Shown one piece after another: positions 38,845-61,677 of a stretch of 64,000 nucleotides of DNA. Numbering within the stretch: position 1 is the first letter of the stretch; the number at the start of each line of letters is the position of its first letter. Source of the DNA: Marsupella aquatica. Taxonomy: Eukaryota > Plantae > Marchantiophyta. The notes under the pieces are model-generated. The model was given only the letters and a program-made list of their open reading frames with translations, made no database searches and was not told the origin of the DNA. The position numbers and the translations under genes were made by a program. The stretch lies in contig OZ316896.1 in assembly GCA_973895155.1 (NCBI GenBank), positions 20,386,754 to 20,450,753 of the forward strand. The letters are read 5' to 3'.

Positions 38845-39734
38845 ATTTATCACCCTATTCATTAAAACTGGAATTTCTCTAGTCCAAAAGTTGACGTTTA
38901 AATCTATTATTTTACACCCCAAAATTCTATAACTTTGTCCCCAAAATCATACATTTTCGTGGCCAAATGTACACTTTTTAAAGTCTAAATTTACAATTGT
39001 AATGCTCAAATTATTAAATAACTAAGTTATTAATTATAAATATAAACAGATAAAAATACAGAATAAGACAATATTAGTTTGACAATACAATAAATTCAAA
39101 TGATAACATTAAAAATGACACACTCTAACCAAGGGTCATGAACACGGAACTCCAGGAAAACAAGTGATGTATTATAAAAAATTATAAAACCTATTTTTAC
39201 AGGGTCGAGATCACGTTGACCCCTATGTAGGGTCCAGATGGTTCTGACCGGTTGTTGAATGCATATCTGTAAAAATCTATATGGTGACCATCTCGACCCA
39301 AATGGAGGGTTCACATAATTTTGACCCGTTGTTGAATGTATATCTTTAACTTACTATTCTTTCTGTACAGGGTTAAGCCCCGAATAGACTAACCTTTTTA
39401 TGAGTATATATCTATAAGTAAAACCCTATTTCTTCAGTAGAGGGTTAAGAACATTTAGACCCAAATGGATGTTACGGTAAGCTTCACGCTTTCTTGCAAA
39501 CATATACCCCTAACTAATAATCAGTGTTTGGTGTAGGGTCGAGATCATCTAGACCCAAATCTCATGATCCTCCTCCCCGCAAAATTCGTTTGAGCAAGTA
39601 AATCTAGACCCTGACGGGTCATATTTCATATCGTGATTGCAGAAATCTAGAGGATTTCTATTCCAAAACTTAGTCGTGAGGTCTCTAGTCCTCAGAACTT
39701 CCGAAACAAATGCCAGATGATCGTCTCTATAGGG

Positions 39735-40606
39735 TCATGTATACTGATCCCCAATTAATATCCTTATAAGGTCCTCGATCGCCTCCTCCGTCAATTCCTC
39801 AATTGGTGGCAATTGTTGCACTTCATTCTTGATGTCCCAGGGAATTTCGTCCGCTGTAACATCCAAGACTGTATGGATAACATTGGGAACCCATACCATA
39901 CTACCCCACCTCTCCGACAACAGAGCATAAATGGCAGCCTGTTGATCCCTGTCCGATAAAACATTGATCATAGACCACTTTGGGTGATTGATAAATAGGT
40001 AGTGTTGAAGATTGAAGGCATGATACAATTTCCTCAGCAGAGGCCACAGTATTTTGGGAAAGAACGTATCATCCGTGGAGTGATGCAAAAATGAAGAAGG
40101 GAACAACCCACAATTCTCTGGATTTGCAAACGCCTTCATTGGAGAGTCATCAAGGAGGAGTGTATTAGTCTCATCGTATAATAAACCATAACGTTTCCAA
40201 ACAACCCTCAAATCCTTCAAAAGAATATTTGCCTTTCCTTCGGTGACGTCAGGCCTCTGGATTCCAGTGTCAAATGTATCTTCTTGCGTCAGAATAAACT
40301 TGAATTGCTCCTGCTCTTCTTGAGTGAAGATCAAATGAATCATTTCATTTGCCCTGGGCTTTCTCGCACAAGTCCAGATGGCAACATCAAATATAGCAAA
40401 AGTTGTGATTAAGAACTCGTGAAGATGGGGACGCTCAACATACATAAAGTTAAATCCTCCACGTCTCCCCCAATGAACACCCTTGACACTTGTGGCACTT
40501 CGGCGCGGTCCAGGACTCGGAGTTCTAACAGAATCCCAACACATTTTGTTGAGGTCAAGAATCAATAGCTTCCGTCTGATTGGACCGTGAAGTGGAGGCA
40601 AGGGTC
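39735..40606 (-). pseudogene. FCP1/SCP (NIF) HAD-phosphatase-like exon, 3' part of the cargo gene
   Basis: RRKLLILDLN, ERPHLHEFL...FDVAIWT, LLKDLRVVW, ETNTLLLDDSPMKAFANPEN. Joined to upstream coding sequence by phase-1 GT-AG intron 40711-40607. Confidence 0.85.
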
Positions 40607-41359
40607 CTGCAAACAAGAGACACCTATATTAGAATTGTGTGAGACAGAATAAAGGTAGGCTAGAGATGATCTCGAGCATGAAAAGTAAATTAACAACAGT
40701 GCGAGACAAACCTGCAATTGGCTGAAGGGCAGATGTCAAAGAATGTGGAAAGCTTCGGAGACTATTGTCGACGCAATCCACAACTGGTAATGGCCCGCCT
40801 ATCTCTGTGAAGGTAGACATAATAATTTAGATGGCTGAATTTGAGGACTGAAGGTAGCTTGGGTTTCAACGTCACTTGCTGAAAGACCCAAATTCATCTA
40901 GAAGGTTATCTCCTAATTGGTTTTGGATGTCCAAATTGATCCCTCCAGGAAGCGTTTCAACAAGAGCTGGCTCAGACCAAACTGGCACTAATTTGAACTT
41001 ATTTTTCCTATAATCCCTAGAACGCATAATCTTCTCAGCCTGATCTACATTGACTTGTTTGCCTTTTGATGGACCATGAATCCACACATAATGAGTAGCA
41101 TTAGCTTTGAGAGATTTGTAGCCAGTTCTACCGATTTCAACACCAGGTTTCCTAACAAAAGGAAGAATTACGGGGCTTCCAGTAGAAGAATCTGTGAAAA
41201 CAAGCTTATCCTCTGAAGCGCAAAACATTTGGTCCAAGGGAGAGGACGATGCACCTGCCTCATCCTGAGGGGAGTTGTGGCAGGGGAGCGACAAGCTTTC
41301 TTGGTTGAAAGGATGTCATCGAGTCGAGGTGGGCTAGGAATTGGGTGGCTGGCAGCATC

Positions 41360-43150
41360 CTACAAGGTGGTTTCCCAACCAACATCCAAGTTCGAAAACT
41401 GCTGCTCACGTTGTGCATCCTCTACATGAAACGTGTCCACCGAAGAAGGTACACCAGGAAGCTCGAGATCATCTCGACCATCATTTACCTCATTAAATTC
41501 GGGCAATATTTCACCCTCCTCTTCCATGTAGCTTGGGATTTTGGGACCCTCTGTTTTGCGATGCTCCAAATTCTCCGCAAAAACTTCCTCGGAAACACTC
41601 TCCTCAACTGGAGCTGGATCCGAGGCCACTTCTTCCAAAACAGTAAGGGGACCGGCTTCAATGGCCTCAGATGGCAACGACCCTGGGGGTGGAATATATA
41701 AAACATGGCGGTTGTCATGGAGGAGCCGCGCATAAGCTTTGATGAATTCCATCTCTTGAGCTGTGTCAGAATAAACAAAACAATCCCGACCAACAATGAC
41801 GCAAGCTTTGAGGGTCTGCCCTCCGGAGAAGAAGTCAAGCACTGTGTGACCAGTGCTGGAGAAATAATCAACAAGACGCTTTGTCATTCGTATAGGTTTA
41901 GCTCTGGGGTTTACAAAGCCCCCTCTCCTACCGACCATCTCATAAGACGGGGCCATCTTCTCCAATACTTTGACATCAACTCCAACTTCATCCTGCTTCT
42001 CTTTCCCTCTTTGTTGATCCTTGCTTTTCCCAGCGGAAGACCTCATCGGTAAGACGGTGAAGTCTTTGTCGTACTTAGCACTGTAATTCCAGAATGCATA
42101 AAAATTGTCAAAGAAAATTTGGGACCAGTCAGGCTCTTCGTCACAACAAACTCCCCCAAAAATGATAGTGTCCCGTGCTCCTATGAGAAAGTCACCTTCC
42201 TCCTTGGGTACATCTTCACGGTAGTAACTACCGTACTCGAGCTTAGTGTGGACTTTCTTCTCATGACGGAACTTCTCAAAGGCACTCTGAATCTGGCCTA
42301 TTAAAGGGCCTTGACGAACAAAAATTATTGCCAAAAACTCGGTTGAGTTAGACATCTCCAGACAATATTCCAACAAGACAAAAATCTCAGCATCTGTCCA
42401 CTGACGTTGTCGAATACGACCAAAGTTGACAACGGCAAGTGCGCACATATTATGAAAGGGTCCAACTGATTCCGGCTTCATCGTCCTCATAAGATTGTCG
42501 CTTAAAAAACTGTGATAAGGAGTATCCACCATAGTAGGAGTCCCACCAAACGTCTTGCAGTATATCTGCTCAAGCTTCACAATGAGACTTTGCGGAAATG
42601 GTTCTTTGGCCCTATTTCTCTTTAGGAGATTGGACAGCCAAACCTCACCAGCGAGCTGTCTCAGTTTTGGCAATTCGCCGCGATCTAAAAATGCTGGCAA
42701 AAATTGAGTTAGCTCAAACCAAGTAAGTGAATCGGAAAAATGTTCGAGATACTTTAAAATGTAGTACTCCATGATTTTTGCCCTCAGCTTTGTCATGACT
42801 TTAAACGTATGGGCCATGTCACTCATTGATTGAACATCAGATTTGTTCGTCGGGTCTTTCTTCAATAGAACCTTCTGATGATGAACTGCAGTGAACACCT
42901 TTAGAATGTCCTCACTACTGAGGTCCCCTTCAAAGCATCTAAACAATGCCGGTGTAATCATTTTCATTGTCCGGCTTTTCCCGTTCGTTTTTGAACCTAA
43001 CTCACCAAGTCCATCAGGAAGAAGCCCCTTGACCCAATCGATGCACATTAGTCTCCAAGATTGGAACAGTTTCTCTTCCGAAAACAACAACCAAAAAATA
43101 TTCCTCAGGTCGGATTTTCCAGTCGTTATTTTGGCCAAAGCCATGAAATC
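41360..43150 (-). pseudogene. Cargo-gene exon with N6/N4 amino-DNA-methyltransferase-like domain
   Basis: VNPRAKPIRMTKRLVDYFSSTGHTVLDFFSGGQTLKACVIVGRDC (~41915-41780) matches the HP..KP..L..rli..fS..gd.VLDpF.G.G...aa...gR block of beta-class amino-MTases. Acceptor AG at 43152-43151. Confidence 0.75.
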
Positions 43151-43305
43151 CTGATCCAAAGATAACAGTGAAAATATGAGGCTCGAGACGATCTAGAGGT
43201 AGAAGAAACTATGTTGAAATTTATTGAAAAAGACTTGAATACATAAACTTGACCTCGAGGCTCGAGACAATCTCGAGCTAGAAGTGGATTTGAGTTTGAA
43301 TATAC

Positions 43306-43779
43306 CTGGAACTTTTGATGATCCGTTAGTCTATTGGACCCAATCACGGGTCTCTCGGGACGGCCACACTCGTCAAACTGTCGACGGGCATGGACCATAG
43401 TATCAAGAAAATAGGACTCATACTCCATCATCTTGTTAACTGCATTTGCCCTTTGTGAGTGTTGAGCAAGTATTGTTCTTGGAGTTTTGTCCGAAAGAAT
43501 TCGTGACTTTCAAAGCTGAAGACTCTTGGCGACCTCCTTCAACTTTGCATCGCTCTTAGACCAACCAATGATCCAAACTGCTGCCTTGGCCGAGTGTTGT
43601 CCACTAATTGCAAGGAATTGCACCTTCTTATTCTTAACACCCCACTCGAACTCCTTTCGATCCTCAGGAGTATTATCATAATGGAGCAACTGCGAACTCT
43701 CTCTTGAATACGGAATTAAATCCGCCACAGCTGGTACAATTCCAGGGTTTCTAACCATGGATTTTGCGATCTCCATGGC
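43306..43779 (-). pseudogene. Cargo-gene ParB/Srx-like domain, 3' half
   Basis: AMEIAKSMVRNPGIVPAVADL...FLAISGQHSAKA..., then an in-frame TGA at 43510-43512, then KSRILSDKTPRTILAQHSQRAN. Donor GT at 43305. Confidence 0.65.
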
Positions 43780-44534
43780 CACTACTACATATTGGCCCCT
43801 TTTGCGAAGCTTTTTTTTGACGCCGGGATGGTCTTGCGATGTCATCAACTTCAGATATTTTGTGATCAAACACGCATCACAATAAACCATGCTCACAGGT
43901 TCGCAACATGGTGTTGCAAAGCTAAATACCTCGCAATTTGTTTGCGATCGGATTGAATTCGCAACTCTTTCAGATACTATTCATCTCGCAAAGTATTTGT
44001 GGATCCACGACCATCGCGACTGCATTTGGATCTCTTTTGTTTCATAATTTAGCGATAATAATGTACTCAAATATATATTGTGAACCTATTAGCTTCGCAC
44101 AATATTGTGAAGCATAAATAGTCGCAAGTTACCGAATCCAGTTGATTCGCAAAGTTGAGAACACATTGGCATCACAATTACCGATGGTGTGTTATTCACA
44201 AAGTGTTCAGAAGTTGCTTCTTGACAAGCTTGAAAATGTTTTGCAAAGAGAGTTGTTTGAAAATTTTGTAGAATGGAAATGTTTGAGAGAGTTTCTTTAC
44301 AAGATGGAGAATGCATGTGTTTAGGTTACAGCTAGGGTTTTCAAAAAGGTGGCATGCATGAGGATAGCTTTGGAAACGGCTAAGGTTGCATATATAACAG
44401 TGAGATGAAATTTCAAAGTCCAATTAAGTGTTTGTAAAACAAAAGAAGAAAAGTAATATGTTAATATAAATAAAACCATGATAGTTAGTTTAGGGTCAAA
44501 TTCTGGGCCCACAACAAGTTTTACTACTAGTGCA

Positions 44535-47500
44535 TCAAACCTGGTCCTCATCCTCGCCTCCATTTGACACAATAATAACGTCAGGTTTTTCCGAGATAAT
44601 GGAACGGGACCGTGGCACATACGGTATAACAACTGACCACTCTAGGTCTGGTGGGTACGGAATATAGAAACACTGCTCAAGGTGACTTGGGAATGTAAAT
44701 GGTTCAGATGTTTGCCAATGAGATGGTTGAAAGCTAGTTGTTGATGTCTTCAGTCGAGTAAACCCACACTCATCAAGAAGTACCGTGCGATTATCACCAA
44801 CCAGGTGAATTTTGAACCACTTACACTTGAAGACATACTCTTCAAATTTGGAATCGGCATCATAGGATATGATCAAGATCTCCTCAATCTTCCCATAGTG
44901 AGGCACCACATCTCTGATCACATTAGTGTCATGACGGCTACTTTGTGAATCTTGCATGAACTGCCCTTGAACTCCACAATCAAAAGTTCTTCCCCTTTTC
45001 TCATCAAGGTCAGAAATCCTGAAATGCCTCCCTTGTGTCCACATTGCTGTTCTGGTTTGAACAAGTCTTAAAGGACCATGAACAATTGTTCGAACCTCAG
45101 GAGTCATATCTGGAAAATGTGATACATTCTCACCTTGGGCCACCATAGCATCCAACTGAAGTACTTTCTCCTTCATATACTCAAGGAACTTTGGAAAGAT
45201 CCTTGGGCGACGACTTTCCCTCTTTGCATCTTCATAAAACTCTCTCCAATCTTCCATCACATTGCTGTTACTCAACATGAAAGTACTAACCTGTGTCAAC
45301 TCCACTGCGGTTAGTAAGCGTGTTTTTTTTGCACCTGTTAAACGGTCCTCCTCCACTTCCCTCTCTTCCATCCAAGTGCGTGGAAAACTAGGATCAATGG
45401 TAGCTAAGATGTTACTACAATAAAACATACTCTCAGCTGCCAAGTATCCGGTTGCCATGCTCCCCTCCACTCGTGCACGGTTCCGTACATAAGCCTTTAA
45501 CACGGCCATATACCTTTCCAGCCAATACATCCACCTACAATGCACCGGACCGGCAATGGCAACCTCCCTCACAAGATGAACGAGAAGATGCACCTGACAA
45601 TCAAAGAAGGAAGGAGGGAGGGCCTTCTCCAACTTGCATACCACCTCTGCTGCCAATACCTCCATCCGTGGTATCTCTTCTTCATATATTTCCTTTGAGC
45701 ATATCCATCTCAACAAAGTGCCTAGTGACCAAAGGGCGTCTTGCACTTCTTCACTCCCCAAACCTATGATTGCCACAGGAAGTATATGTTGTAGTAAACG
45801 ATGATAGTCATGTGTCTTGAGATACATTGGCCATTTATGACTGTCCTCCATCCCAAAAGCCTTACGTAGATTGGCACCATAGCCTGTAGGAAACCGCATT
45901 TGCCCTATGCGTTGTCGAAACTCTCTTCTTTCACCAACACTCAAAACCCATGGAGCTGAAGGACGATGTTCCATCCCTGTGGATTCATCAACTGTTATCC
46001 ATACATCTGGATGTCGTTCTAGATCCTGGCATGCCTCCCTAAAATTAATGTTCTTTTCCCCATAAAAGTGCTTGATCAAAGCCTTCCCAACATTTCCCTC
46101 TATATGCATGGGGTCTAACAAGTGATGAATCTTCAACTCAGGCCAATAGGGCAAAGTGGCCAGTATACCCCACCTTGTCAATCCACTACCATCAAATCCC
46201 ATGGCATCTTCAGGGTCTGCCACCCTATCAGCTATGGACTTCCAATACGAAAATATTGTGCGGTCAGGTATCTCACGCTCATCACCATTGATCATGTCAA
46301 AGTCTGAAAACAAAAGGGGGTCAGACCTCATGTGATGCCCAAGTGGAAGAAACTTGGTATGACCAAGGTAGATTATCTTGTGCAGCCATTTTGAGTACTT
46401 GGTCATATCGTGAAGGCTTGGACCACAAGTGGAGCATGCCTTGTACCCTTGAGTTTGGAACCCAGAAACAAACCCAAACCCTGCTCACAAAATAACATTC
46501 TCAATTAGAGTCAAAGGAATTGAAAAGTTCATGTACATAGAATTAAAGAGGGACTTCCTTCCAAACAAACTTGATCTCCAATACATGAAAAAAATACAAA
46601 TCCATACCACTCACCTGGATAGTCATGCATGGTCCACATAATGATTCCCTTCAATTGGAAGACACGTGGTAACCCTCCTGTAGTTGTCCGACCATCATAT
46701 GCCCATACACCCCCCCATAATTTATGGAGTTCCCCAACCAAGAGCGCCAAGTAGGTGTCCATGTTTTTTACCTTAGATGGACCTGGGATAATCAATGATA
46801 GCAATAAGAATCCCTTTTTCATGGACAACCATGGGGGAAGGTTGTAATTCATAACAACCACCGGCCAAACCGAAGTAGGGCGCCCTTTCCCTCCAAGGGA
46901 GTGTGGGCTTACCCCATCTGATGCCAACCCCAACCTCACATGACGAGGGTCACGTGCAAATTCTGGCCATTGTGACTCCACATGCTTGTGAGCAGGGGAA
47001 TCAACTGGCAACCGCATGACACCGGCCTCTGATCGATGTGTCTTATGCCATACCATCAATTCTGCCAAGTCAGAACATCGGTACATGTGCAACAATCGAG
47101 GAATAATAGGAAACCAACGAACAGCTTTTCTAGGCACCTTTGAGGTCAACATGTTGGTTTCATATCGAGGCTCTTGACAAATTGGACACTCAGTTGCGCT
47201 GGCATTGGTCTCATGATAGAGAATGCAGTCATTCACACAAGCATGAATGATATGGTATTCCATGCCAATGGATGATAGAACCCTCTTTGCCTCCTTCCAA
47301 GTTCCTGGCAACACATTTTCACTAGGTAACAAGAGATCATGGCAAATTGCAAACAAATCTGATAGTAGCGCATTGCTTGCCTTGTGTTTTGCCTGAAGAT
47401 TCATCAATGCCAAGATGGCAGATAGTCTATTCAAACGAGCACCCCCATAAATAGGTGTTCTAGCATGTGCCTCAGCTTCTTCCCATTGTTTTTGTCCTTC

Positions 47501-49115
47501 AGGTGTACGTTGAGGCCTTGGATCATGTGCAACATTTGGTGGAGGGTCTCCTTCATTGGGTGGGACACCTCCTTCACCACCAATGTCTACACCAAACCAA
47601 TCTGTCATGAAGTCATCCATGGCTGACTCTTGGTCTTGCATGACCTCATAATTTGTCCGAGGTGCCCCTTCATCTGGACTGTCATTATCATTGTCACTTG
47701 ATGAGGAATCTGCTGATGATGTTTCCCCGTCTTGTGGCAAGCCCATTTCTTGATATGTAGCTCTCAACCTCCTTGGCAACATATCTTGACTAGGCCGCAC
47801 ATTCTATAGAAAATACAATAAAGTATTCACAAGGAAATTAACGCCAAATATAGTAGTGCTCGAAACATATTATTAACAATATAAAAAGAACATGTCATTA
47901 CAAAACATACGTTCACATACGATGAACGTATAATACATGTCCCTAAAGTAATCCTAATCCCATTCATAATGTGTAAACAACTCCTCTCCAACCAGAATGG
48001 TCCTATTAGCTACAACTAGACAATGGTCATGATGATATCTCTGCCCATAAGGGGCTGGAGGGGGACCATCAACAAAAACCCATTCACAGTTTTTCCTACG
48101 CTTAGGCCGGGTCCCCACAGTACTGTTGATGAAACCGGCAATATTCCCACTACAGATGGGATCACCATCAATTATACGCTGGTCACAATACTTTCTGGTG
48201 CAACCATCAAAAGTATCCATGTCCAATGCATAAGTCTTCCACTCAGGGTGTTGAACAAGGATCATGTTCCAATGTCTCCTCTTGTAAATGGGTCCACCAT
48301 ACGGGAACAACGTTGGTCCATCTGAAGAGCGCCCTTTTCCACCCATATCATCCACAATAATGTCCTGACAAGAGAAAATCCCATACCCATGCCTCTCCCC
48401 TAGGGTCGAACTCTTGACAACCCAACGTCTTCCCCAAACTTCTATCTCCTCACCATAGGTTATATCACATGGCAAACCAAGGCACTCCGGATTCCAATCC
48501 TTTATGATAGGAACACACTTCCCTGTGAAGGTACAAGGGCCCCATCTACCATCAACCCTACAAGTGTACTGATCCACTTCCCCTCTAGGCTGTCTTTTTG
48601 ACTTTTTTTTCCCTCTTGTAACAATACCGTCACCCTTAATTGTCCCAACACTACCTTGCCCTGCTGCCACTAAACGAAAAGCTTGTGAAAGTGCCGAGCC
48701 TATAGCATCTAGAACTCCTTGTGAGGGAACATAGGGTGTTGGTGTAGTGGGTGTAGGCCTACTGGATACCTATAGGAAGAAATGGAACCAAGTGAGTGTG
48801 ATGAACCTCCCAAATTTTATTTTATGCTACCTAGCAAGATTTACAAAATAAAATGGAAATCACAGTAAGTTTACAACTCACCATACGGGATGAAGAAGCT
48901 CCCGGTGTAAGACCTCGATGTTGGCCATATCGAGCAATGTGCTCCGCACATACATATGACTTTTGGACAACCATCCCCACACATTTTTTACAACCACAAA
49001 GTTGGCGTGGTGGACCACTAGGTCGACGTACGGTTGGTTCAGGTTGAGGAGGAGGATGACTTTCTTCATCGGAAGAGGAATCTGATGTGGTGGAAGTTGT
49101 AGAGGATGAAGACAT
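44535..49115 (-). CDS. CACTA TnpD-type DDE transposase, apparently intact (exons 49115-48882, 47803-46615, 46480-44535; 1122 aa predicted)
   Basis: LASDG, MHDYPG and MHIEGNV (putative D-D-E) are intact. The exons sum to 3369 nt, are in phase, and contain no stops. Confidence 0.93.
47954..49115 (-). CDS. CACTA-borne SET-domain protein (exons 49115-48882 + 48769-47954; 349 aa predicted)
   Basis: GYGIFS, FPYGG, IDGDPICSGNIAGFINS, VVANRTILVGEELFTHY. N-terminal exon has CGCKKC..H. Donor GTGAGT at 48881 and acceptor AG at 48771-48770. Confidence 0.88.
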
Positions 49116-49548
49116 CTGACAAGTATAGCAATTGGAAGGCGATTAGTAAAAACTTCACCAAAACCATCATTGATAATCCCTACCTAAACATATTAAAAAG
49201 AATTGACAGAAAAATACCTTTATGAGACCCGGGCTTAGCAATGCCTTGACGGATCTTGTGGCTCAAATTTCATGAACCAAATCTGGAAGGAGGGGAAAAT
49301 CTGCCAATATACAATGAATTAAGCCATGCCTTATGGTGAACCAGAAAAAAAGGATGATAGATTGTAACCCTCCATATTTACAGCAATGACTAGAAATGCA
49401 TGAGAAAATGTTATACCTTTCAGATGCCCGGGCTCTCGCAAGGCATTATCATGCATTAGCCAAAACTTTAAAAAACATGGGGAAGTGCCCTACAATGCCA
49501 AAGAGTTTTCCTCTCCATGTTAATGAGATAGACAAAGAAATATAAGTA

Positions 49549-50340
49549 ACCCAAACCCTACCCTAAACCCAAACCATGAAATGAAACCCTTCATTAAAAC
49601 CTAACCCAAATCCCTCAATCACCCTAAACCCTTACCCTTATCCTAACCAATACCCAAATCCCTCATTAAAAATTCAAACCTTTACCCTAAACCCAAACCC
49701 CTACCCTAAACCCAAACCATGAAATGAAACCCTTCATTAAAACCTAACCCAAATCCCTCAAGCACCCTAAACCCTTACCCTTATCCTAACCAATACCCAA
49801 ATCCCTCATTAAAATTTCAAACCTTTACCCTAAACCCAACCCAAATCCCCCAATTACATATAAAACTCTTACCCTATCTACACCTTACTTTACCTATATA
49901 GGCCAACCCCCACCCCTATAGTTATTCTAAACTTCACCCTAACCCCTAAATTGAGGCCCTTTTTTAAAACTTAAGCAAAAATTGTACCCCCTCAATTAGA
50001 ACCAAATCCAACCCTATATCATGTTACACCCCAACCCAAACACTTACATTAGAAACCCAACCCCTTTAAAAAACCACAATTAAACCCCCCAACTAAAAAC
50101 CAAACCCAATCCCTTTAAAAAACAACCACAATTCAACCCCTCAACTAAAACCAAACCCAACCCCTGTAATTACTCACAACCTAATGCAAACCTCTACCTT
50201 GAACCCTAAGCCAAACCCATTAATTTAAACCCAACCCTTTTATTCCAACCTAACCCAAGTTTTAACCCCCTTAATTAAACCAAATACTCCTAGATTAAAA
50301 CCAAATATAAACCTAACCTTTAATTAAACCCAAACCTTTG
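49549..50340. repeat. AAACCC(T)-rich telomere-like tract including a 2 x ~143-bp tandem duplication (~49558-49840)
   Basis: CTACCCTAAACCCAAACCATGAAATGAAACCCTTCATT... occurs at ~49558 and ~49701. The + strand is nearly G-free. Confidence 0.8.
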
Positions 50341-51014
50341 TTAACTTATATTCTAGTTATCCTTACAACCCAAACATCCATTGACACCCCTTCCATGTTA
50401 ACTTATGGGCACTTAACATACCTTAAATGTCGTTTGACAAACCTTAATAGCCGTTTGACACCCCAAAGTGTTTTCCAACCCTAAACCGATAAGACCTGCC
50501 TCGCAAATTATTTCACAAGTTAGAGAATATTTTTGCGAACCTAAGACCTTCGCACTTGCTTCGCAAAAACAGAGGCCGAGAACAATTTTTTGGGTCTTCT
50601 GCGGGTTGCGATGGCTTTGCGAAGGGAATAGATTCAGAAGTGCCTCGCAAGTTGCGAGACTATTTGTGAGGGCGCGGGCTTCACAGTTTCCCATGCGTAT
50701 GTCATCGCAAACCCGTTTTTGAACGGCGTAAACATCGGCGGGAGCTCGCATTCGGGCTCATTTCAGTTTTTGAGCGAGACGAGAAGGGACGGGGCGCGCG
50801 CAACAGTACGAGGGAGACTGTGAGAGAGGGGAGCTATGGCTACCGGTAAGGGGAGTGGAGGGCAAGGTGGTAGTGGTAGTGGTAGTGGCAATGGGGGAAA
50901 TCCAGAGAAAGAGAAGAATGCCTGGGCAGACTTAGTGGCCCAACATCTCAGTGCTGCACAATTGGGAGAAGTGAATCTCAATTCTCCAGCAGGGCTTGCC
51001 TCTTTGAGTGCCAT

Positions 51015-54000
51015 TGTGAGTATTGGGTAATACCGAAAACCTGAAATTACTGAAAAATTTAAACTTTTTACAGTATTTAAGCCTGCTGTTGCTGTTAAAA
51101 TGCCAAGTGTAAATTACGGGTTTACGCTGTTACGGGTTTACGGGTTTATGCTGTTACGGGTTTACGGGTTTACGCTGTTACGAGTTTACGCCAATACGGG
51201 ATTACGGCTTACGCCTTACGCGTTTAAGGAAAGTTCACGTTACGGCGCTACGGCTAACTTCGCAACGGGACTTAGAAACGGATTGGGGACTTCATACCTT
51301 GATAGGAATCAAGCACAGAGTTCAGGCGCTCACTCCTGTATTTTCACCACCCCTATTCACTTGCTCTTTCTCTTCGAAAGCAACCTTCGCAGCAAGCAAA
51401 TCACCGTTGCAGCTATGGCGAACCTGGGTGCTGAGGAATAGTATCAAACTGAAGCTCTAGCAGTCTCAAAAGTAGTGGCAGCTCGCATACCACGAGCGCC
51501 TGATAGTCTTTCTAATTTACAAGACTCTTTACAGCACTTAGGATTGGAGCGCTTGCTCAGGATCCCCTGGAATGTCGAGCTCGACTCCTACTTGCAGGAT
51601 TTTGTGAAGGGGACTATCATCCCGATTGAATTCAGGCAAACGATTCGAGCTCACCCCAGCCTGTGGACTGTTGAGCAAATTGCTTACGCCTTTGGATGCC
51701 CGTCAGAAGGAGAGGCGTTATATTCCAAGAAGCAGGACTTATCTGCTCCATACTTCTCAGGAACTCGAAATGCCAAGAATGGTTGGAACTTGTCCCAGTG
51801 TACTTATCCTGAATTGAGAGTGCTCATGGAATTTCTGGTACCCATTCTTCATCCGAAAAAGCCAACTCTCTGTCCTGTGGCCTTGGCTAACACCATTGTA
51901 GCTGCTCATAGTGGAGCTATAAAAGTAAATTGGGCCCTACTTCTGTTTAATGTAATGAAGGATCAAGTAAGGAGCTTGGAAGCAGGGAGGACCACTTGCT
52001 TACAGAATTATCTCTCTCAGCTCTATTATACTCATGACTGTTTATATCTGGAGGAAGAGACAGAGAGGGGGTTACTCCTGATTGACTTGGGTATTGAAGA
52101 AGAAATTCCTATGGAGGACATTGTACATGTCACCCCATTGAATTCGAATGATAAGAACGTTGAGGAGAATGCTGATGTTCCTATGGAGGATACTTCATTA
52201 GAAATCCCTACACATTCTCCTATGCATAGCAGGGAAGTTGTTTGCCAATCAATAAGTAATGAGAATTTCCCTAGCCGGACTATGGATGCAGATCCACTAG
52301 AAGCTGAAGAAGTAAGGAGCATTCATCAACAAGACGATGATGCTACACCAACTGATGCTGCTCCTCATGAGACCACCAGGTCCACTCCTTCGAAGGCAGA
52401 GTCGAATCAGCAGCTTATTGATAAGTTGATATCTCTCCTCAGTTGTAGTGATGATGGACTATATGATGCTGTTAATAATTTGAGAATGGAGGCTGTTAGT
52501 TTAGGATCACCATTTCATGATCAGCTAAGCCCTGTCAGAATAACCTTTCCCCCAAGAGAACCAGCACCAATGGAGTTTGTGATCTGTACTCTTGTCACTG
52601 TACACCCCCCTCCCCTAGAAACAAGTGAGCCCATTCCAGTAACAGATAGTATCAGCTGTGTGGCTATTGTGGATGACTTGTTAGAACTACTACAGTGTGA
52701 ACCTCGACAGATAGCATCTGTGGTCCGCAACTTGGTCCAACAATGTCCAACTGCTAGTCCTACTTCTAGCCCAGGTTCACAACCTTACAGCCCTGATTCC
52801 AACTACGAACCCACAGAAGGACCCACCTACAATCGGTCACAATATGAGCACCCTTTTGACAGAGAAGATCTACCTGAAGACTCTGATCCACCCTCAGATG
52901 GTGAAACTTATAGATCTTATGATAATTCTCTTGAGTCATCCCCAAGGCAGGGATTTGAAGATGTTGATACTGCCTTAAGATCCAATCCAAACTTAGTAGC
53001 AGTTGTCACTTCATCTACTCAAACACCTCGGAATGCCACCATCGAGAGTAGATACCCGAGACATCCCGAGTCCCAAGTGCACAGGTATGTGGAGACCTGT
53101 AAGATTATGCAGGCCAACAGACCACCGGTTGGAGAATTTTGGAAATACTACTATCTCAAGAAGACAGAGCCCAGTTATATCTTCGACCTCAGGTGTTTTG
53201 GAACTTCCAGACTGGAGATGGCACAATTCGATGAGTTCTGGACTGACTCTCTCTATTTCCGACCCATTCTTGCTGTGATGCTACTTCAAGGAGATGTGGA
53301 GGTGGAGGATTCAGATTTAGTTCTGGCATATTTTGGAAATTTGGCAGCTTATGCCCTAGATTTTGTGGTTTCTTTTCTCATGCAGAGTAAGAAATCTACT
53401 TCTCCCCAGAACGCTTACCTTCCTCGAGAGCCCAAGGTTACCCTTGTTTCAACCAGTTCATTAGCTGAGAAACAGAGAATCTGGAACAATGTCACCTCTC
53501 AAACTCTGGCCAACTTCAATCGGTATTTCAGAGATGTCAAATGGAGGCTTCACCCTTTCTATTCCAGGATGCTGAACTCTGATGAATTTCTATACCATTA
53601 TCCCCAAGTATATGCTGCTACTTGCAATAATTATGACGTGATTGGGATATATAGAGAAGCTCTTTGAATAGACATATGTTATCTAAGGAGAAGAATGCCC
53701 CTGATGTATCCTGAAAGGCAATTGAGATGCCTACCCTACTCTCGAGGATCCCCACGCCAGGCTGAGCTGATGGAAGTTACTCAAGCTCGGACTGTTACCC
53801 TCGTGGAGCTACTCGAACCAGAAGATATCCGACAACAAGCTTGAGGCAGAATCTAAGTCTTTTTAGTTAAGTTTTAAGAATAGTGCATCTTTCCCTATTT
53901 TTCAAAATGTGTTATAGAGCTTTAAAAGCTATGAAACTTATTTAGTGTGTAGCCTGTACCTAGGAAAACCTACTGGCAAAATTTCAGAATTTTCCGAGCC

Positions 54001-55044
54001 AGGAGTAGAAAGTTAAAAATAGTTGAATTTGGTAAGTCTTTAAGTCTACCGCATTCACCAGATTACGCCTTTACGTTTTTACGCTTTTACGCGATTACGT
54101 CTTTACGCTTTTACGCTTTTACGGGTTCTTACTTAGCCATTTCCCGGCTTTTCACTTACTGAATCGCTGTTTTGACTTTTTGAGGACTATGAAGAGGCAT
54201 GTCTCTTCGACCCTATGACCTCTTACCCTATAGGATTTTACTATAAGACCCCTCCACCACTAGTGTAGAAGTATGGTAAAGTCTAGCAATTTTTGCCTTT
54301 CCTTGGTGTTCTGCCAGTTGATCATGAATGTTAAGAGTTCGAGATCAAGCTTGACACCAGGAGAAGACTTTCCTCCTTCTTGTGGTTTAATTCTTTGAAT
54401 AAATCATAGGAAGTAAAATTCCTTTTGTGCAAATCTTTTGAGTTGTGATGACAGATTCCTTGTTGGTGACTCATTGCAATCTCCTGAGTTCTTAAAGTTA
54501 ACTCATTGAGTTTAAGTCTCATTGAAATTGATGGATTTTCTTTCATGTTGCTTAGTACCATCTAAATGTTGAAGTAGCCACTCTTTTAGATCTTATCTGA
54601 GTACCACTTAGAAAGAAAGGATAAGACATGCTGACGACATTTTAAAAGGTACTCTAGTAAGCAATTTAGATCTGAAAAGCAATATGGATTTGAAACCTTA
54701 AGTCTTTTCATTTTGACTTATGTCTAAGGAGTAACCTTGGTCTATTCCAGACTCCCTTAGCGTACTTTGAGATTATTTTCTCTTGTGTTTTGTTAATCAT
54801 TCCTTTTTCATTAATTTATGGTTACCCAATGCTGAGTTATCATTGAAAACTACTCACCGCTGTGGAGCGATCTTCAAAATACCTTATTAAAGTAATCAAT
54901 TCTGATTACTATGTGTTAAAGAGAGTTCTTAAATTCTCATTTGTGTTTTTATGTATCAAACCAACCCCATCTTGTTCTTTACGGGAACGAATACCGAGTT
55001 TGAAGACCTTTAAGTGTGTTTTTGGTTCTTCATAGCAAACTACA
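51015..55044. mobile_element. 4.0-kb TG..CA insertion (probable ORF-bearing solo LTR or LTR derivative); TSD imperfect
   Basis: TGTGAGTATT...AAACTACA. Removing it restores SAI-LGQVLQTG of the TnpA-like gene. The flanks GCCAT and TGATT are not a clean 5-bp TSD. TTACG micro-repeat arrays lie at ~51113-51250 and ~54062-54125. Confidence 0.7.
51415..53844 (+). pseudogene. Retrotransposon accessory ORF (~800 codons) with two in-frame stops (51439-51441, 53665-53667)
   Basis: 730-aa open stretch 51475-53667. The frame is continuous from ATG 51415 and on to TGA 53844. N-terminus LGLERLLRIPW..TIRAHPSLWT..EFLVPILHPKKP..VNWA resembles hypothetical TE proteins I recall from liverworts (not verified). 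Confidence 0.6.
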
Positions 55045-57692
55045 TGATTCTTGGACAGGTTTTGCAAACTGGGATTGTAGCAGGACAAGCTACTAGAGAG
55101 GGGGAGGAGAGGGCCGCAGCTGAAGAGAAGGCTAGAGAGAAAAAAAGGAAGAGAGAGGAAAGAACTAAGTCGGGAGTTGCCTCTCCTCAAGCCCTAGAGA
55201 AGCAGAAGAGAAGAGAGGAGAGAGATTCAATTCGAAAACAGAGGGAGGAGCAACGTTAGAAAGAGGAAGCAAGAAAAAAACTTCCATTCATTGCCTTGGA
55301 GACGAGTGGGACTCCAACTGAGCTAGCATATGCAGGGGCTAAGAGCACAATCAAGCAGATTATCACAAGCAATTTCTCACGAGGCATGCAGTGGGGGAAG
55401 ATTGAGAAGGCAGAGCGAAAGAGGGTCATCAACCAAATCAAGGATGCATTTCGCAATGGGCCTGACATAGATGAGCAATGGTTGGCAGATAAGATTTCAA
55501 ATTCTCTGTCCCAAATGCGATACCATGACAGGATGAAGATTAGAGCCCACCTGAAAGACTTGAGATCATACAGGAACTTGCGCAGACCCCTCCACTTCAC
55601 CGAGGACATCTGGAATTCGTTTTACAAGATTGAGGTGCAAATTAAGGCAGCTCACGAGTTGGAAGAGTGGAAGGGCAATCTAGATCGAGCCTTGAAAGCA
55701 AAGGGGGCCGGGAAGCTCCCCCCTGACCACGACCTGAAGCCACTTGAGCAGAAGGTAGCTGAGATGCAGAAGGTGGCCGACCAGGAGGGAAAGCCACCCA
55801 AGCGTTTCACAGATGCAGCCAAACGAGTGAAATCCACCCCCAATCCAGTCCACAAGTTGGGTCAAGGCGGGCTCCCCGGCCTCAAGTCACACTTTGTGAG
55901 TGCCTCTTGCTCCTCCCTAACCTCTCTATTCCTTTCAGAGTTGTGCAATGCAAGTGAATGACATCCCCGAAGGTTCTTGCTGTTGTGCATGCTTGCTTGG
56001 TTACTAGTTTAGGGCAACTCTGACACTTAGAATTTCTGGCAAATTTTTAAAAACTCTCGGGAACACAGTTTGCGAAGGTGTTGCGATGCGTATTTGTTCG
56101 CAAACCCCTCGCAAAGTCTATCATAGACTTTTTCCATTTCAATTTTCCGATGCCTTTGCGAACAAATGCGCATCGCAAACTCCATCGCAACGCCTTCGCA
56201 AAAAAAGGTGGTTTGCAAGTTGCTATGCTTATAGGTTCGCAAATTTGAATTTTAAATTATTTTTGGGTCATGTTTAGTAGTTGAGGATTTAGGCGTCACT
56301 TGTGGCTATAGGGTATGCTTAAGGGCAAATTTAACCAATTTTAATTGGTTTTATGCATGGCAGTATCGGAGGTACAAAAGGAAGATATCAAAAAAGCATA
56401 TTGAGGTGGCGATAGAGCATGGACGAAAGTACCTCTTTGCGATGGTAGATGCCGAGTTGGCTACTGTAAGTGTCTAAGTGTGAACCATATGATTAGCATG
56501 CGAACATTGTGAGTGACCCTTTATGTCTTGCGGAAACTAATGATATGTAATGGATGCAGGATTCGGATGAGCCTGAGGGGTCGGGTGCTGATGTGACCAG
56601 TAGTGATGACGATGAGGGGGCTACTCCTGGTACTAGTGGTGCTCGGGGGGGGAGTAGTCGTGAGGTAGGTTCTTCCCACCGTGGTAGTGGTGGTAGTCGT
56701 GTGTCATCAGCACACGTTGATGACCAGGGGGAGGAGGAGGACCCTGAGGATGAGGAGGAGGAGCAGGAGGAGCCAGAGGAGCAGCAGGAGCAGGAGCAGG
56801 AGCGCCGACGGCCATCACGCACCCGTCACCAACAGGATCCCCGGAAGGATAAGGGCAAGAAGCCAGCCAAGAAGCCAACCAAGAGGAGCCGCAAGAGCCC
56901 ATTCTAGTTATTTTGTAGAGATACATGCATGAGAGTGACTTGTCATGCCGGAGCTTAGGGTAGGAAGAGGCAGCATAGGTTTAGAAGGGCGGACCTAGCA
57001 TCAGATATTTCCCCCCTCTTGTCCATGTATAGGGTTCTTTGAAGCCCTATCATTTTGTTCATGCTTTTCCATTTTATAAAACAACAATTTTGCCTTCCAC
57101 ATTGGGTTCCAAGGAAAACCCCTCGCAAATAATGTATTGAATCCTGTGTGATCATAATTTTGCGAACCCTTTAAGAACTCATTCCCATCGCACAATATTA
57201 ACCCCAAGGCGTCGCACTTTTTGAGTCAATTAACTTCAAAACTTCAGATCCAAATATGTCGGGTTTTTGTGATACTTCTAGGATCGCACTTTCCTAATCG
57301 CAACCGTTCACAAACTTCTGAAATCACCGGTATCGCTCTTTGTCATACAATCCCCATCAAAACAATTGAACCAGTATCAATCGCAAATATGATGCGATGG
57401 TAAATCCGTCTCAAATATTGACGCCCGCGCGGGACGTGTGCGTGTATGTTTGCGAACCTTATGCGACGTATAATGGATCGCAGAAGTATTGAATATTGCG
57501 AACCTCTCAGCTTCTCAGTTTGCCATGATGTTGCGATGCCGTTGCGATGGTCCGCGTGCAAAGTTATTAGGTTTGCAAAGTGCGAAGGGGGTGCGATGCG
57601 TGTATGTTTGCAATAGCCAGAATTATGAAAATCAGGGGCTTGTTAGTTGCGATGAGATTGTCTTCGCAAAACCGGCCGATAGTGTTGTAGTG

Positions 57693-58693
57693 GGCATGGT
57701 CCTTATTGAACATCCTATATACCAAAACTGCAGAAGGTGAATCTATACTAGTGACAGGAATGTCAAAAGTTTCATTCATGCCAAATGTGTAATACTCCTC
57801 AATCTCCTTAAGAACTTCGACTCCTTCTTTAACGCTCTTTTCACCCGGAGCATCTCCTGGAGTGCCATCATCATCGGTATGTACAATCACACCTGAAGAA
57901 GATGCCGGAATGAGATCTACCTTTACAGGAGCAGACTTTTTCTTAGGTGGAGCCTTCTTCGAACCGCTTTCAGGTTTCTCAACCCTTTTCCTCTTTTGCG
58001 CCACCTTTACCTCCTTCTTGTCCGAGCCTGACATCTTATCACCTGCAGCTCCTGATTTCCCTTTACCTGTTTGTCTCCGATGAGACAACACCCACTTCTT
58101 GCACCCTTCCTCGTCAAATTCACCAGCTCCAAAAACAAAATCAGGGGAAATGGATTGAAACTCTCCCACCTTGGAATCTGACATTATTCTCAAAACCTTC
58201 CAAGTGAAAGGAGTCGTGAATTCATTGTCATGATCAAAACCGTATTTCCGGCAATACAAGAATCCAAAAATTATATCTGCCCCAGTCATTTTGGACTCTT
58301 CCAACAAATTACTGGCAGTAAATCCATCGGGGAAGAATCCCATTGGTATCACGCTCAGTTGTTTCCTAGCAGCACGTTCAATATCTTATCGCACGAGTAG
58401 TTCTTGGAGTGAAGCCTAATGAGAGCCCATTTCCCAGTCTCATGGTTCTCCACCGTCAAGACCATGTCCTTACCATTACTTGTGACAATGGAAACAACAG
58501 GCCCAAGTAAGCTGCAAACTAGAGGTTCGGTAGATGGAGACCGCGTCTTCAAACAAATAACTGACCCCTCCATCTCCTCAATTTCAGCTAGCTCAATGGC
58601 CCAACAGAATCCTATATCAGTTTGTCCACGGCACAAAACCTCAAGGGCATGTTCATCTTCAACAATCAAATTGGGCGATCCCAATTTTGCACC
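57693..58693 (-). pseudogene. Cargo-gene upstream coding region, including the 5' half of the ParB-like domain
   Basis: ORF 58352 to 57693 ends TFDIPVTSIDSPSAVLVYRMFNKDHA exactly at the CACTA-2 TSD and continues in frame at 43776. Frameshift near 58385. Further degenerate exons probably extend to ~60200. Confidence 0.7.
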
Positions 58694-58976
58694 TGGAAAA
58701 AATGAAAAATAGACCAATTGTCAGAATCACAGAAACGAGAAATCCCGTAAGAGGCTCGAGATGATCTCGAGCTTCCCTCACCCATTAACATAGTTGAACT
58801 CAAATAAGTACAAAACTGTTGTTTCATGGCCAGATGTATTTGGGGGGAGGAATTGATTCTAAAATATCATAAACCCAACTACCAATCACCTTTTTGAACC
58901 CCAATCATCAATGGAAACGAGTTGGAGGGTATTTCGCAATCTACAGAGGCTAGGGCAAGCATGGAATACAATGGAA

Positions 58977-59700
58977 GCTCGAGATGATCTCGACCCTAAA
59001 TTTGTGAACAATACTTTAGAAATAGAATACAGGAAGAGTCAATCATGGCTAAACAGTCAACATTATCTAAATCTCTGCATTATCATATTTCATCATAGGA
59101 AAACATCGATTCTCAATTATGAGAATCTCCATCGAATACGAACATCATACTCAAAGGTTGACCAAGCTTACGTCTAACACCGGCTTCAAAAACTCTCTAA
59201 CTCGGGATGATTTCCATGATCAGAACGAGTTGGAGAGTACAGAAGTCGTTGACAGAAGCAAGCTTGGTCGACTTCCGATAGGATGTTGGTTTTCGACAGA
59301 CGTGGTCTTCCATACGCAAAAAATCTGACAAGGCAAAAAGTTAGTACACTGTTGATGAATTGGATATTTTAATACTTGGGTCGAGATGATCTCGACCCAA
59401 GTCTCTAAAAGTTAGAATACAGAGACTCACAGTGGCATTCGTTCACCGTTAACTAAATCTTTGCATTATTATGTTTCTTCACTGAAGACATTGATTCTCA
59501 AATATGATCGATCGAATACGAACAACATACTCAAAAGTTGTCCAATTTTACCTCTAGAAAAGGCTTCAAAAACTCTCTAACTCAGGATGATTTCCATGAT
59601 CAGAACAAGTTGGAGAGTACAAAAGTCGTTTTTAGAAGAAAGTTTGGACGACTTTCGATATGATGTTGGTTTCCAAAGGATATTGTTTTCCATCGGAAAT
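58977..59700. repeat. Diverged direct duplication with ~390-bp period
   Basis: GGCTTCAAAAACTCTCTAACTC(G/A)GGATGATTTCCATGATCAGAAC(G/A)AGTTGGAGAGTAC at ~59181 and ~59561. Each unit begins near a palindrome (58977, 59379). Confidence 0.85.
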
Positions 59701-61350
59701 AACAAAACATCCGTCAAATACGAACAGCATATTCAATAGGACTCTAAATCTGCCTTTTCCATAATCCCTTTTGGATATGCTGTTAGTATTTGACAGATAC
59801 AACATGACAAATACCACAATCTGATAGATACATCAATATGAAAATGACAGAAACCTCTTAACTTTATGGATATTAGGCTCGAGATGATCTCGAGCCTAAT
59901 CTCAATTACAAACGATAAACTTGTTCACTTCGAAGCCACCTCTTGAAGCAAAGTAATGTAGAAAATATCAATCAGCTCGAGATGATCTAGACCCTCAAGT
60001 GGATCAAAAACCAAGTATGATTTGAAGCTCGAGATGATCTCGAGCCAAACCTCCATCTAACAATGAGAAAAGATAATATATTACGTTTGATAGTGCGGTG
60101 GATGTTCTGCGATGAATCTAGAAGGGTCTAAAGCTCCATCGCTACAGTTGATGCGTCGTACTCGGCGAAGTCATCCTTGGAGAAATCTACAACGGTCGAC
60201 ATGGCTACTGGATACTGGATATTGGATACGAGATTTGGGTGATATAAGAAAAATATGATCTCGAGGCTCATAGGAAAATCTCGATCCAAACGGCTATAAA
60301 ATATCTCGAGGCTCAAAGGGGATCTTGACCCTAAACAAGTCTCGAGGGAAAAATAATGATCTAGAGGCAAAAGCGATGAAATATCTAGAGGCAGTAAGCA
60401 AGAGGCGAGTGAGGCGCGGAGGGGAGGTAGGCAGGGAGGCGAATGTACAAATGAGGGTGGCGACGTTGCGAATGTGCACTATAAGCCGCTCAGTCGGCCC
60501 TGAGTCAGGCTGGGGTGCCTGGCGATGGATGCCCGGCCACGTGCAGGATGCCACGCGCCCATGCGTGGGAGTGAATCTTGAGTTGAGTCATGATGATGGT
60601 GCTGTCACACGTACCGTCATTATTGCGGTCCGTACTTCACCCTGCCGCTAGTTCATCCCTGCCATTGGTTTGACATAGCCATTTGGTCAGGCAGGATTTT
60701 ATATATTGCTCGTTTTTCCTACCCACCGGGTCATTCTTCAGATATCGTTTCATTGCTCGCTTCCTGCTCCCCTCATTCCCTCTTCCTGCCCCTACCTCTT
60801 GCTCCCTGTTCTCTGGCTCTAGATTTGTTCTCGAATCCCTTTCTCTCTCAGTTGTTTATTTGGTTTTGGAGACATTCTCATTTGAAGCCATGAAGTTGGT
60901 CTAAAATAATTGAACCCATACCTTTTAGAATACCAAACCATTTATGCTTAAAACATTGCCACTCAGAATCCATTTGTGAACCTTTTCTCTTTTTTTTGAA
61001 GCTATTTCTCATTTCTCATTAGTCTTCTGTAAGCCTACTTTATGTATTTCAATGTCAAACTTTTACCTCTAGATCATCTAGAGCTCCTCATTCATTCCAA
61101 CATATTTTTCAATTAGAGTGTCATGTGTGGCTCGAGATCGTCTCGAGCTTTAGGTATCTTCCTGGGAATTGTCTATTTTTGTTTCTATCTCCTTTAAATT
61201 CACAAGTATTTAAGTATCTTTCCTTCTCTTGTGTGAGTTCATGCTTCTCTGAGGAGTTATTATGAGCTGTTGTTTCTATGCACTTCATAGTTCTTCTTAT
61301 AGGGTGGATTATTGATCGTGGGAAATATTGAATTCCCTCTTCATGTGGAT

Positions 61351-61580
61351 TGTCTCGAGCTGAAGACTTTTGTTAATCTATATCTCATGGTTTTTGTGGT
61401 CCATTCTTTACCTCAAGATCGTCTCGAGCTGAAGACTTTGTTAATCTATATCTCGTGGTTTTTGTGGTCCATTCTTTACCTCGAGATCATCTCGAGCTGA
61501 AGACTTTGTTAATCTATATCTTGTGGTTTTTGTGGTCCATTCTTTACCTCGAGATCGTCTCGAGCTAAAGACTTCTTAAT
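61351..61580 (+). repeat. ~68-bp tandem repeat (about 3.3 units), each carrying the element palindrome, just upstream of the transposase
   Basis: TCTCGAGCTGAAGACTTTGTTAATCTATATCTCGTGGTTTTTGTGGTCCATTCTTTACCTCGAGATC is repeated. Confidence 0.92.
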
Positions 61581-61677
61581 CTGTTACTGCTAGTTCAGTT
61601 GGTTTGTTTTTGCTAGTCACTTTACCTTGAGATCATCTCGAGGTACAACAGCTTCCTGTTTGGAACATCTTTTCTAA

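Follow-up and report, generated by a model that had tools for sequence, protein, structure and literature searches.

A multi-copy Sola-like transposon of the liverwort Marsupella aquatica with a probable pseudo-methyltransferase, a separate FCP1-like reading frame and a candidate palindromic target

It is rare for a transposon to carry accessory genes that may act on the element itself. In the Ectocarpus element Sola1-1_Ec32 the published description, as far as its available text goes, places on the strand opposite the transposase an accessory gene for a 1104-aa protein that combines a ParB-like domain with an N4C/N6A methyltransferase and is a predicted writer of N4-methylcytosine or N6-methyladenine (4mC/6mA); the transposase of this element has the moss Sola1-1_PPa as its best match (PMC12477816). 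The available text on the red-algal Plavaka elements describes the cargo genes PAG2, which couples PF01555 to a SET domain, and PAG3, which couples a ParB-like domain to a 2-oxoglutarate (2OG) oxygenase (bioRxiv 2025.02.11.637652). Both of these 2025 papers, in the parts available, propose that ParB-plus-methyltransferase cargo binds and methylates its own transposon (PMC12477816; bioRxiv 2025.02.11.637652). In Arabidopsis the VANC protein of the VANDAL elements is described as an anti-silencing factor that binds a family-specific motif enriched in the non-coding parts of the element (PMC5735166). Here we analyze a stretch of 64,000 nucleotides of the liverwort Marsupella aquatica (assembly GCA_973895155.1, contig OZ316896.1, positions 20,386,754 to 20,450,753 of the forward strand; hereinafter the window, to which all positions refer), in which a Sola-like DNA transposon carries two minus-strand open reading frames (ORFs), ORF-A and ORF-B, and a recurrent 17-bp palindrome. 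An initial annotation of this locus had described a single cargo gene fusing ParB-like, amino-methyltransferase-like and FCP1-like phosphatase domains. We find that it is an ancient multi-copy transposon cassette of seed-free plants, the land-plant version of the algal design, which is likely to be self-recognizing rather than DNA-methylating. The reading that we favor, at a probability of roughly 0.55, is that of a decayed multi-copy Sola-like element whose ORF-A encodes a pseudo-methylase likely to bind the element's own palindromes, next to a separate FCP1-like ORF.

The host element, of the Sola-like/DUF7869 type, occupies 38850..64000, with its left end at about 38850-38862 and its right end beyond the window; once the CACTA insert described below is subtracted, about 11.2 kb of it lies within the window. 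Contigs from four public DNA-type runs (two studies, two organism labels) were mapped on positions 38000-44200. The depth of the 2418 contigs from one of them (run X1) rises from 351-542 across 38000-38827 to 6,235-141,146 beyond, with the step near 38850-38860; variant-bearing contigs begin near 38856-38862, one joint returns to 38855, and a joint indicating an internal deletion (38935 to 43739) is present in two runs. Although depth does not give a copy number, this is the picture expected of a DNA transposon present in many copies, with its left end near 38855. A contig in another run (X2) joins position 42692, within ORF-A, to the left end at 38855, which suggests that one copy inserted into another. 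The transposase-like ORF (61696-63999, plus strand, open at the window edge) lies head-to-head with ORF-A. Its three N-terminal repeats of about 80 aa each (61696-62625, plus strand) are 28-34% identical pairwise and match no Pfam family, and they are followed by the DUF7869 region (HDKMD...; LTLQMDN). This ORF matches the DUF7869 profile (PF25273) with E 2.8e-4, under the Pfam cut-off, and scores 0.92 in Atlas, where DUF7869 accounts for 26 of 30 matches. We provisionally take DUF7869 to be the Sola1 transposase, and the N-terminal repeats presumably resemble the En/Spm TNP1-like domain. The assignment of the minus-strand genes as transposon cargo opposite a Sola-like transposase is borne out by these observations.

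ORF-A is interrupted in the window copy by CACTA-2 (43780-57692), a nested element with CACTAC/GTAGTG ends, a 3-bp GGC duplication, a Tnp2 transposase, a SET-domain ORF and a further nested insert. Without CACTA-2 the empty site reads YRMFNKDHA followed directly by MEIAKSM, and two homologs that are intact and lack introns, P0103 (1009 aa) and P0106 (1219 aa), align uninterrupted across this junction; both contain the whole of ORF-A without FCP1. On the minus strand, and in the direction of translation, ORF-A comprises a tentative first exon with an ATG (60084..60202, proposed from sequence only); a 5' part (57693..58690) that holds a basic linker along with the first half of the ParB-like domain (IPV...YR.FN) and has a frameshift near 58386-58390 and homolog support only downstream of about 57800; the second half of the ParB/DUF3723-like domain (SGQHS...N; 43306..43779), with an in-frame stop at 43512-43510; a GT-AG, phase 0 intron (43151..43305) containing two palindromes; an all-helical domain of about 205 aa (42530..43150), conserved across the family and a candidate DNA-binding domain; the beta-class amino-methyltransferase fold (41696..42529); an acidic low-complexity linker (41268..41695); and a C-terminal domain that ends in DEFGSFSK (40872..41267), with the stop codon at 40874-40872. 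A Calypogeia gene model (P0002) runs without a break across the point of the intron at 43305-43151. The initial annotation had read one coding series through to the phosphatase domain and had noted stops and frameshifts in this copy. Once CACTA-2 is removed, both introns do prove to be GT-AG and in phase, and the series ends at the 40872 stop. The stop at 41362-41360 and the 1-nt frameshift at about 41268, both in the acidic linker, are specific to the window copy, other copies reading through both, and the 40872 stop is conserved in the family and is no sign of decay. The variant statistics given here and below are drawn from the best-supported of the listed variants (40 of 658 for the main region and 40 of 46 for the stop/spacer region). 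The 43512-43510 stop is absent among the best 40 of the 658; synonymous changes make up 9 of 10 listed variants in the C-terminal domain and 3 of 10 in the methyltransferase exon. The window copy of ORF-A is dead, owing to the CACTA insertion, stops and frameshifts. The core of the C-terminal domain is modelled confidently by AlphaFold 2 (AF2), with a predicted local distance difference test score (pLDDT) of about 95 in P0103. The Foldseek and VIA match lists are dominated by the methyltransferase domain and scarcely cover the helical and C-terminal domains; the helical domain gave no significant match in comparison with the profile of the ParB helix-turn-helix region, no search having been made with the helical domain alone.

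The central domain of ORF-A was modelled by AF2 on 71 alignment rows (pLDDT 90), and Foldseek relates the model to M.BceJIV, CcrM, RsrI and PvuII with E-values of 8e-7 to 1e-5. A VIA comparison with CcrM gives a Z of 17.3 and a root-mean-square deviation of 3.5 over 215 aligned positions (residues 208-485), and a wide structure search with an intact homolog had the same outcome (Z 17.9). These comparisons of models confirm a predicted beta-class amino-methyltransferase domain with the permuted Rossmann fold, in which the catalytic strand precedes the S-adenosylmethionine-binding region, and vindicate the initial assignment on this point. With the sequence profile PF01555 (N6_N4_Mtase) the window reaches 22.6 bits against a cut-off of 26.7, with E 1.1e-4 and over the motif X/I block only, and the cut-off is reached by 5 of 30 homologs, mostly via the same block. 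The landmarks on the fold are NPRAKP at 41911, DFFSGG (motif I) at 41836 and VVNFGR, at the motif IV position, at 42433. In beta-class enzymes the prolines and the aromatic residue of motif IV are needed to hold the target base. The canonical form [DNS]PP[YFW] occurs in none of the 36 rows (of the 71) that cover this position; the family consensus is D-F-[STA]-R, with an aspartate in 32 rows, F or L next to it in 34 and an arginine at the place of the aromatic residue in 27. The window copy has N-F-G-R, asparagine replacing the aspartate, and [DNSH]PP[YFW] is found nowhere in the collected family proteins. The motif I sequence DFFSGG is one residue shorter than the DFFAGSG of RsrI and departs from FxGxG. 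None of the 29 rows keeps the acidic residue of motif II at the aligned column, where S or A mostly stands instead, and also V, C, T or similar residues, and the bacterial controls retain it in 24 of 32; an aspartate one position past this column, present in 13 of the 29 rows, could partly compensate. Since the prolines and the aromatic residue have been lost family-wide, a pseudo-enzyme is the likeliest reading, and the domain is probably one throughout the family. The suspicion that the methyltransferase may be inactive is supported, the DPPY motif being lost in 36 of 36 rows across the family and not through decay of the window copy, and the DNA-marking role first proposed is unlikely given this loss. 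The DTPY at 42526, about 25 aa upstream, which the initial annotation had noted, is not motif IV: it precedes the first strand of the domain and has only its proline conserved.

The N-terminal domain of ORF-A is plausibly ParB-like, judging from its sequence features. By eye its motif order fits ParB, namely IPV..I, an arginine, a helix, a proline, GQHS in place of GERR (43602-43591), and a later asparagine; family rows have GQHS in 5 of 6 cases and RQHS in the other. The arginine of the GxxR nucleotide-binding box (R70), invariant in 23 ParB rows, is missing in the ORF-A family if the register is correct. In separate hhalign runs, three segments aligned in register with ParB. One hhalign set-up scored 14.8 against 14.0 for the best of 30 shuffles, with a ParB set that included some wrong-strand rows, and a cheap-gap set-up was uninformative, its score of 19.0 comparing with 18.5 for the median of the shuffles and with 25.5 for an unrelated control. 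The sole positive lead to ParB comes from Atlas, in which the N-terminal domain scores 0.95 to DUF3723-type fungal clusters and 0.91 to a cluster with 35% ParB_N.

The element is further marked by the palindrome TCKAGAY-N-RTCTMGA (consensus CTCGAGATNATCTCGAG), of which 18 copies lie between 39538 and 62676, 16 non-coding and 2 coding. The expected number is 0.20, and none of 100 shuffles reaches 18. All 18 fall within the host element and flank the CACTA insert on both sides; allowing up to three mismatches, none is found inside CACTA-2 or in positions 1-38850. The non-coding copies lie in introns, untranslated regions and intergenic sequence, four being intronic and including two in the ORF-A intron and one in the ORF-B intron, and one of the two coding copies lies in the transposase ORF. 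As the same palindrome is thus found within both cargo genes and within the transposase ORF, we conclude that the three belong to one element. Palindrome density peaks around the shared promoter region, the first copy lying about 680 nt inside the left terminus. The ratio of observed to expected TCGA is 3.1 in the intergenic part of the element against 0.57-0.69 outside it, and therefore the CpGs there resist decay. Three tandem 68-bp units at 61369-61574 contain one palindrome each, and a duplicated 195-nt block (59128-59322 and 59508-59702) lies beside a palindrome. The palindrome is being multiplied by tandem duplication, as is reported of VANC targets, and it is a candidate target of the ORF-A protein.

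ORF-B follows ORF-A on the minus strand after a spacer of 51 nt (40821..40871), which diverges between copies, as seen from a dip in depth, loose ends and a 3-nt insertion. It begins at its own ATG at 40820 and consists of exon 1 (40712..40820), a GT-AG, phase 1 intron with one palindrome (40607..40711) and exon 2 (39735..40606), which encodes an FCP1/NIF-like HAD domain (PF03031); the spliced ORF is 326 aa long. The match to PF03031 (E 3.6e-17; 62.9 bits over a threshold of 21.8) upholds the FCP1-like assignment. The nearest solved relative by phmmer is UBLCP1 (3shq; E 3.4e-9), and among NCBIfam profiles HAD_IIID1 is matched with E 1.3e-12, far under its cut-off, and FCP1_euk with 20.5 against a cut-off of 135. 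Motif I of HAD phosphatases has the form DxDx(T/V). ORF-B departs from this with DLNKM (from 40565-40545), in which the nucleophilic aspartate is kept and the acid/base aspartate is replaced by asparagine; the threonine of motif II, the lysine of motif III and the DD of motif IV are present. Synonymous changes account for 4 of 5 listed variants in exon 2 and 1 of 9 in exon 1, which is poorly conserved and has a stop in one low-depth contig; the ATG at 40820 carries no variant among the best 40 of the 46 listed. We rejected the view that the stop at 40874-40872 arose by decay: it is shared across the family, two other subfamilies having TGA and TAA there, respectively, and a fresh ATG lies beyond it. 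All 15 homologs (12 clusters) that reach the motif E[YFH]GS, including a Calypogeia gene model, end 3-21 aa after it, most of them being ORF calls on contigs in which the in-frame stop is shown and splicing around it is possible; P0103 and P0106 end 4 aa past EYGS. The FCP1-like phosphatase is, as predicted from sequence, a separate ORF of 326 aa in this clade, and ORF-B is intact. Of the proposed triple fusion the methyltransferase fold and the FCP1 domain stand, the ParB part is plausible, and the single polypeptide is not supported for this element, since intact copies in this clade encode FCP1 separately.

The family search covered 1.84 billion representatives and produced 98 matches. The 30 homologs looked up include proteins of Calypogeia fissa, of the fern Ceratopteris richardii and of Riccia sorocarpa, in which several models come from different chromosomes; none of the 30 is named from Marchantia and none is named as brown-algal. 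The Riccia models form a separate clade (Shimodaira-Hasegawa-like approximate likelihood ratio test, SH-aLRT, 100) in a quick, midpoint-rooted tree with long branches made from 29 of the 71 rows, from which we claim neither a donor nor an order of events. One search for homologs sized 1043-2975 aa yielded none, which is weak evidence, as P0106 (1219 aa) surfaced later. On the prokaryotic side, tblastn against phages recovered the motif X/I block only, plasmids gave nothing relevant, and 301 genomes of one bacterial phylum gave 8 weak partial matches, none over the whole protein; no close prokaryotic relative was found across these phages, plasmids and bacterial genomes. The top viral fold match, obtained with a query that excluded the ParB part, is a phage protein annotated as ParB/Sulfiredoxin (E 2.2e-7; TM-score 0.32), and a metagenome scan gave one 1.8-kb contig without neighbors and without the palindrome. 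The beta-class fold of ORF-A is of prokaryote type, as originally suggested.

We propose that the ORF-A protein acts as a dimer which, in the manner of ParB at parS, would load on the palindromes using its ParB-like and helical domains. The methyltransferase fold would here be a non-catalytic module that grips DNA or mediates dimerization. Such a coat could mark the element as self and, by analogy with VANC in VANDAL, help it to be transcribed or transposed in the face of host silencing. The methyltransferase domain stays under selection although its catalytic motif is gone, which speaks for binding and against marking. ORF-B probably originated by capture of a host phosphatase gene and would be expressed from the same transcript or from a short promoter of its own; it might act on, or decoy for, the phosphorylation of the C-terminal domain (CTD) of RNA polymerase II, this being the weakest step of the proposal. 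Because distant Riccia models also join a methyltransferase to FCP1, the association with FCP1 is old and may be a true fusion in the Riccia clade. An unlikely extension is that the two genes form a self-control cassette of seed-free plants, in which the ParB/pseudo-methylase protein on a parS-like palindrome recruits a captured phosphatase of the Pol-II-CTD type. If so, the cassette would be encoded by a near-dicistronic message in this clade and fused in the Riccia clade, and it would constitute sequence-specific transcriptional anti-silencing built from bacterial partition parts, independently of VANC. Several observations weigh against our proposal. The ParB part has no Pfam or PHROG match, AF2 models residues 1-221 of P0103 poorly (pLDDT 30-65), and in 4 of 5 set-ups hhalign scored it against ParB no better than shuffles. 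The strong conservation of DFFSGG and of the motif IV aspartate between liverworts and the fern could mean retained chemistry, and in two Riccia gene models the methyltransferase is continued by FCP1. The linkage of cargo to transposase was observed in one copy, that of the window, and the palindrome binding of ORF-A and the expression of the cassette are both steps that we infer.

Of the competing explanations, one gives the palindromes a role in transposase binding or in the pairing of ends and regards ORF-A as a scaffold uniting the ends of a giant element, unrelated to silencing. The three tandem N-terminal repeats of the transposase could indeed read DNA, the concentration of palindromes around the shared promoter region would suit such a role, and ParB proteins are generally known to compact DNA; nevertheless, the palindromes are spread through introns and coding sequence and are absent from the left terminus itself, and we regard this scenario as improbable. 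A different possibility is that ORF-A functions as a non-canonical N6A/N4C methyltransferase in which D-F-S-R does the work of DPPY, its targets being the palindromes or the RNA of the element. The absence of both prolines and of the base-stacking aromatic residue in all 36 rows, the deletion in motif I, the replaced acid of motif II and the asparagine of the window copy make this quite unlikely, even though the beta-class fold is complete, DFFSGG is nearly invariant and the motif IV aspartate is so widely kept. The description of the Sola1-1_Ec32 accessory protein, in its available text, as a predicted 4mC/6mA writer speaks for activity (PMC12477816), and the precedent of inactive transposon-borne amino-methyltransferase domains in DIRS1, again from the part of the source available, speaks against it (PMC4738411).

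It could finally be argued that a single ParB-methyltransferase-FCP1 polypeptide is produced after all, via alternative splicing or readthrough of the stop. In Riccia sorocarpa P0075 joins the methyltransferase to a NIF domain (E 2e-13) and P0091 extends into HAD motif I, the spacer in the window is just 51 nt, and the FCP1 domains of the window and of Riccia are 28% identical. These Riccia models are computed, however, belong to the separate clade and both lack the C-terminal domain of ORF-A; in the clade of the window copy the stop persists as TGA or TAA, a synonymous change, the spacer diverges, ORF-B starts from an ATG of its own, and all 15 homologs with the C-terminal motif stop there. 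We therefore hold such a product to be very unlikely, and prefer the pseudo-methylase ORF-A with a separate ORF-B.

The surroundings of the cassette contain other mobile-element genes. Just outside the host element, an ORF at 38197-38841 (plus strand), of low depth and with a weak Myb/SANT-like Pfam match (E 0.15), ends a few bases short of its left end and is presumably akin to the partner gene of Harbinger-type elements; further upstream, an ORF at 36972-37568 (plus strand) has no Pfam match and resembles the terminus of the restriction-like endonuclease of a retrotransposon without long terminal repeats (non-LTR). A second CACTA element (CACTA-1, 2180-19404) is 77-86% identical to CACTA-2; its ends are likewise CACTAC/GTAGTG, its duplication is ACT, and inserts of its own are nested within it. 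Directly upstream of Tnp2 both CACTA copies have a 271-aa ORF (47957-48769 and 14316-15128, both minus strand); that of CACTA-2 passes the Pfam SET threshold (24.5 over 22.4 bits), that of CACTA-1 is its homolog, and such SET-domain cargo in a land-plant CACTA family recalls Plavaka PAG2. CACTA-2 also contains a mobile-element insert of about 3 kb (about 51050-54150) with a 741-aa ORF (51442-53664, plus strand) that has no Pfam match; direct arrays of TTACG-type 8-bp units lie at either flank of the insert.

In terms of fold, ORF-A shares the permuted Rossmann fold with CcrM, M.RsrI, M.PvuII, M.BceJIV, the bdelloid N4CMT and Marchantia DN4MT1; the canonical beta-class enzymes carry [DNS]PP[YF] and FxGxG, whereas the ORF-A family is without both. 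The available text reports TSPPY for Marchantia DN4MT1 (bioRxiv 2021.02.12.428880), and we rejected a link to that enzyme, ORF-A having no SPPY and no looked-up homolog being named from Marchantia. The nearest Atlas look-alikes of the ORF-A N-terminus are the DUF3723 genes, which the accessible account presents as conserved cargo of fungal Starships (bioRxiv 2021.12.13.472469); both are cargo of giant eukaryotic mobile elements, but Starships use a tyrosine recombinase, and the likeness is one of features, without a Pfam match. With VANC the locus shares the combination of an accessory protein and a family-specific non-coding motif. This is a functional analogy: as far as the available source describes it, VANC is an unrelated protein of a Mutator element with a 9-bp non-palindromic motif, and its activity is demonstrated there and inferred here. 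The Plavaka PAGs, by the accessible description, are similar in being transposon cargo with amino-methyltransferase and ParB-like domains, the ParB call there being likewise weak (HHpred E 0.29), and inverted-repeat arrays adjacent to PAG3 are proposed as its self-binding sites, comparable to the 17-bp palindromes; they differ in having ParB and methyltransferase in separate genes, an EnSpm/CACTA host and no phosphatase. A literature search on ParB, transposon, FCP1 and methyltransferase, whose coverage left out most subscription papers, found no report of the combination and none of such cargo in land plants or with FCP1.

The closest known system, going by the available description, is Sola1-1_Ec32, with which the Marsupella element shares a giant Sola-type host, an opposite-strand gene, the domain order, with the ParB part plausible here, and the protein size (1009-1219 aa in the intact homologs). 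It differs in its land-plant host and in the family-wide loss of the catalytic motif, an active writer being predicted for Ectocarpus; the accessible part of the Sola1-1_Ec32 account makes no mention of a C-terminal domain like that of ORF-A, of a downstream FCP1-like ORF or of 17-bp palindromes, this comparison being one of descriptions. The present locus extends the algal design to liverworts and a fern, and what it adds is the family-wide catalytic loss, a tightly linked FCP1-like ORF and a defined candidate palindrome, which as a precise candidate target makes self-recognition testable in a tractable group.

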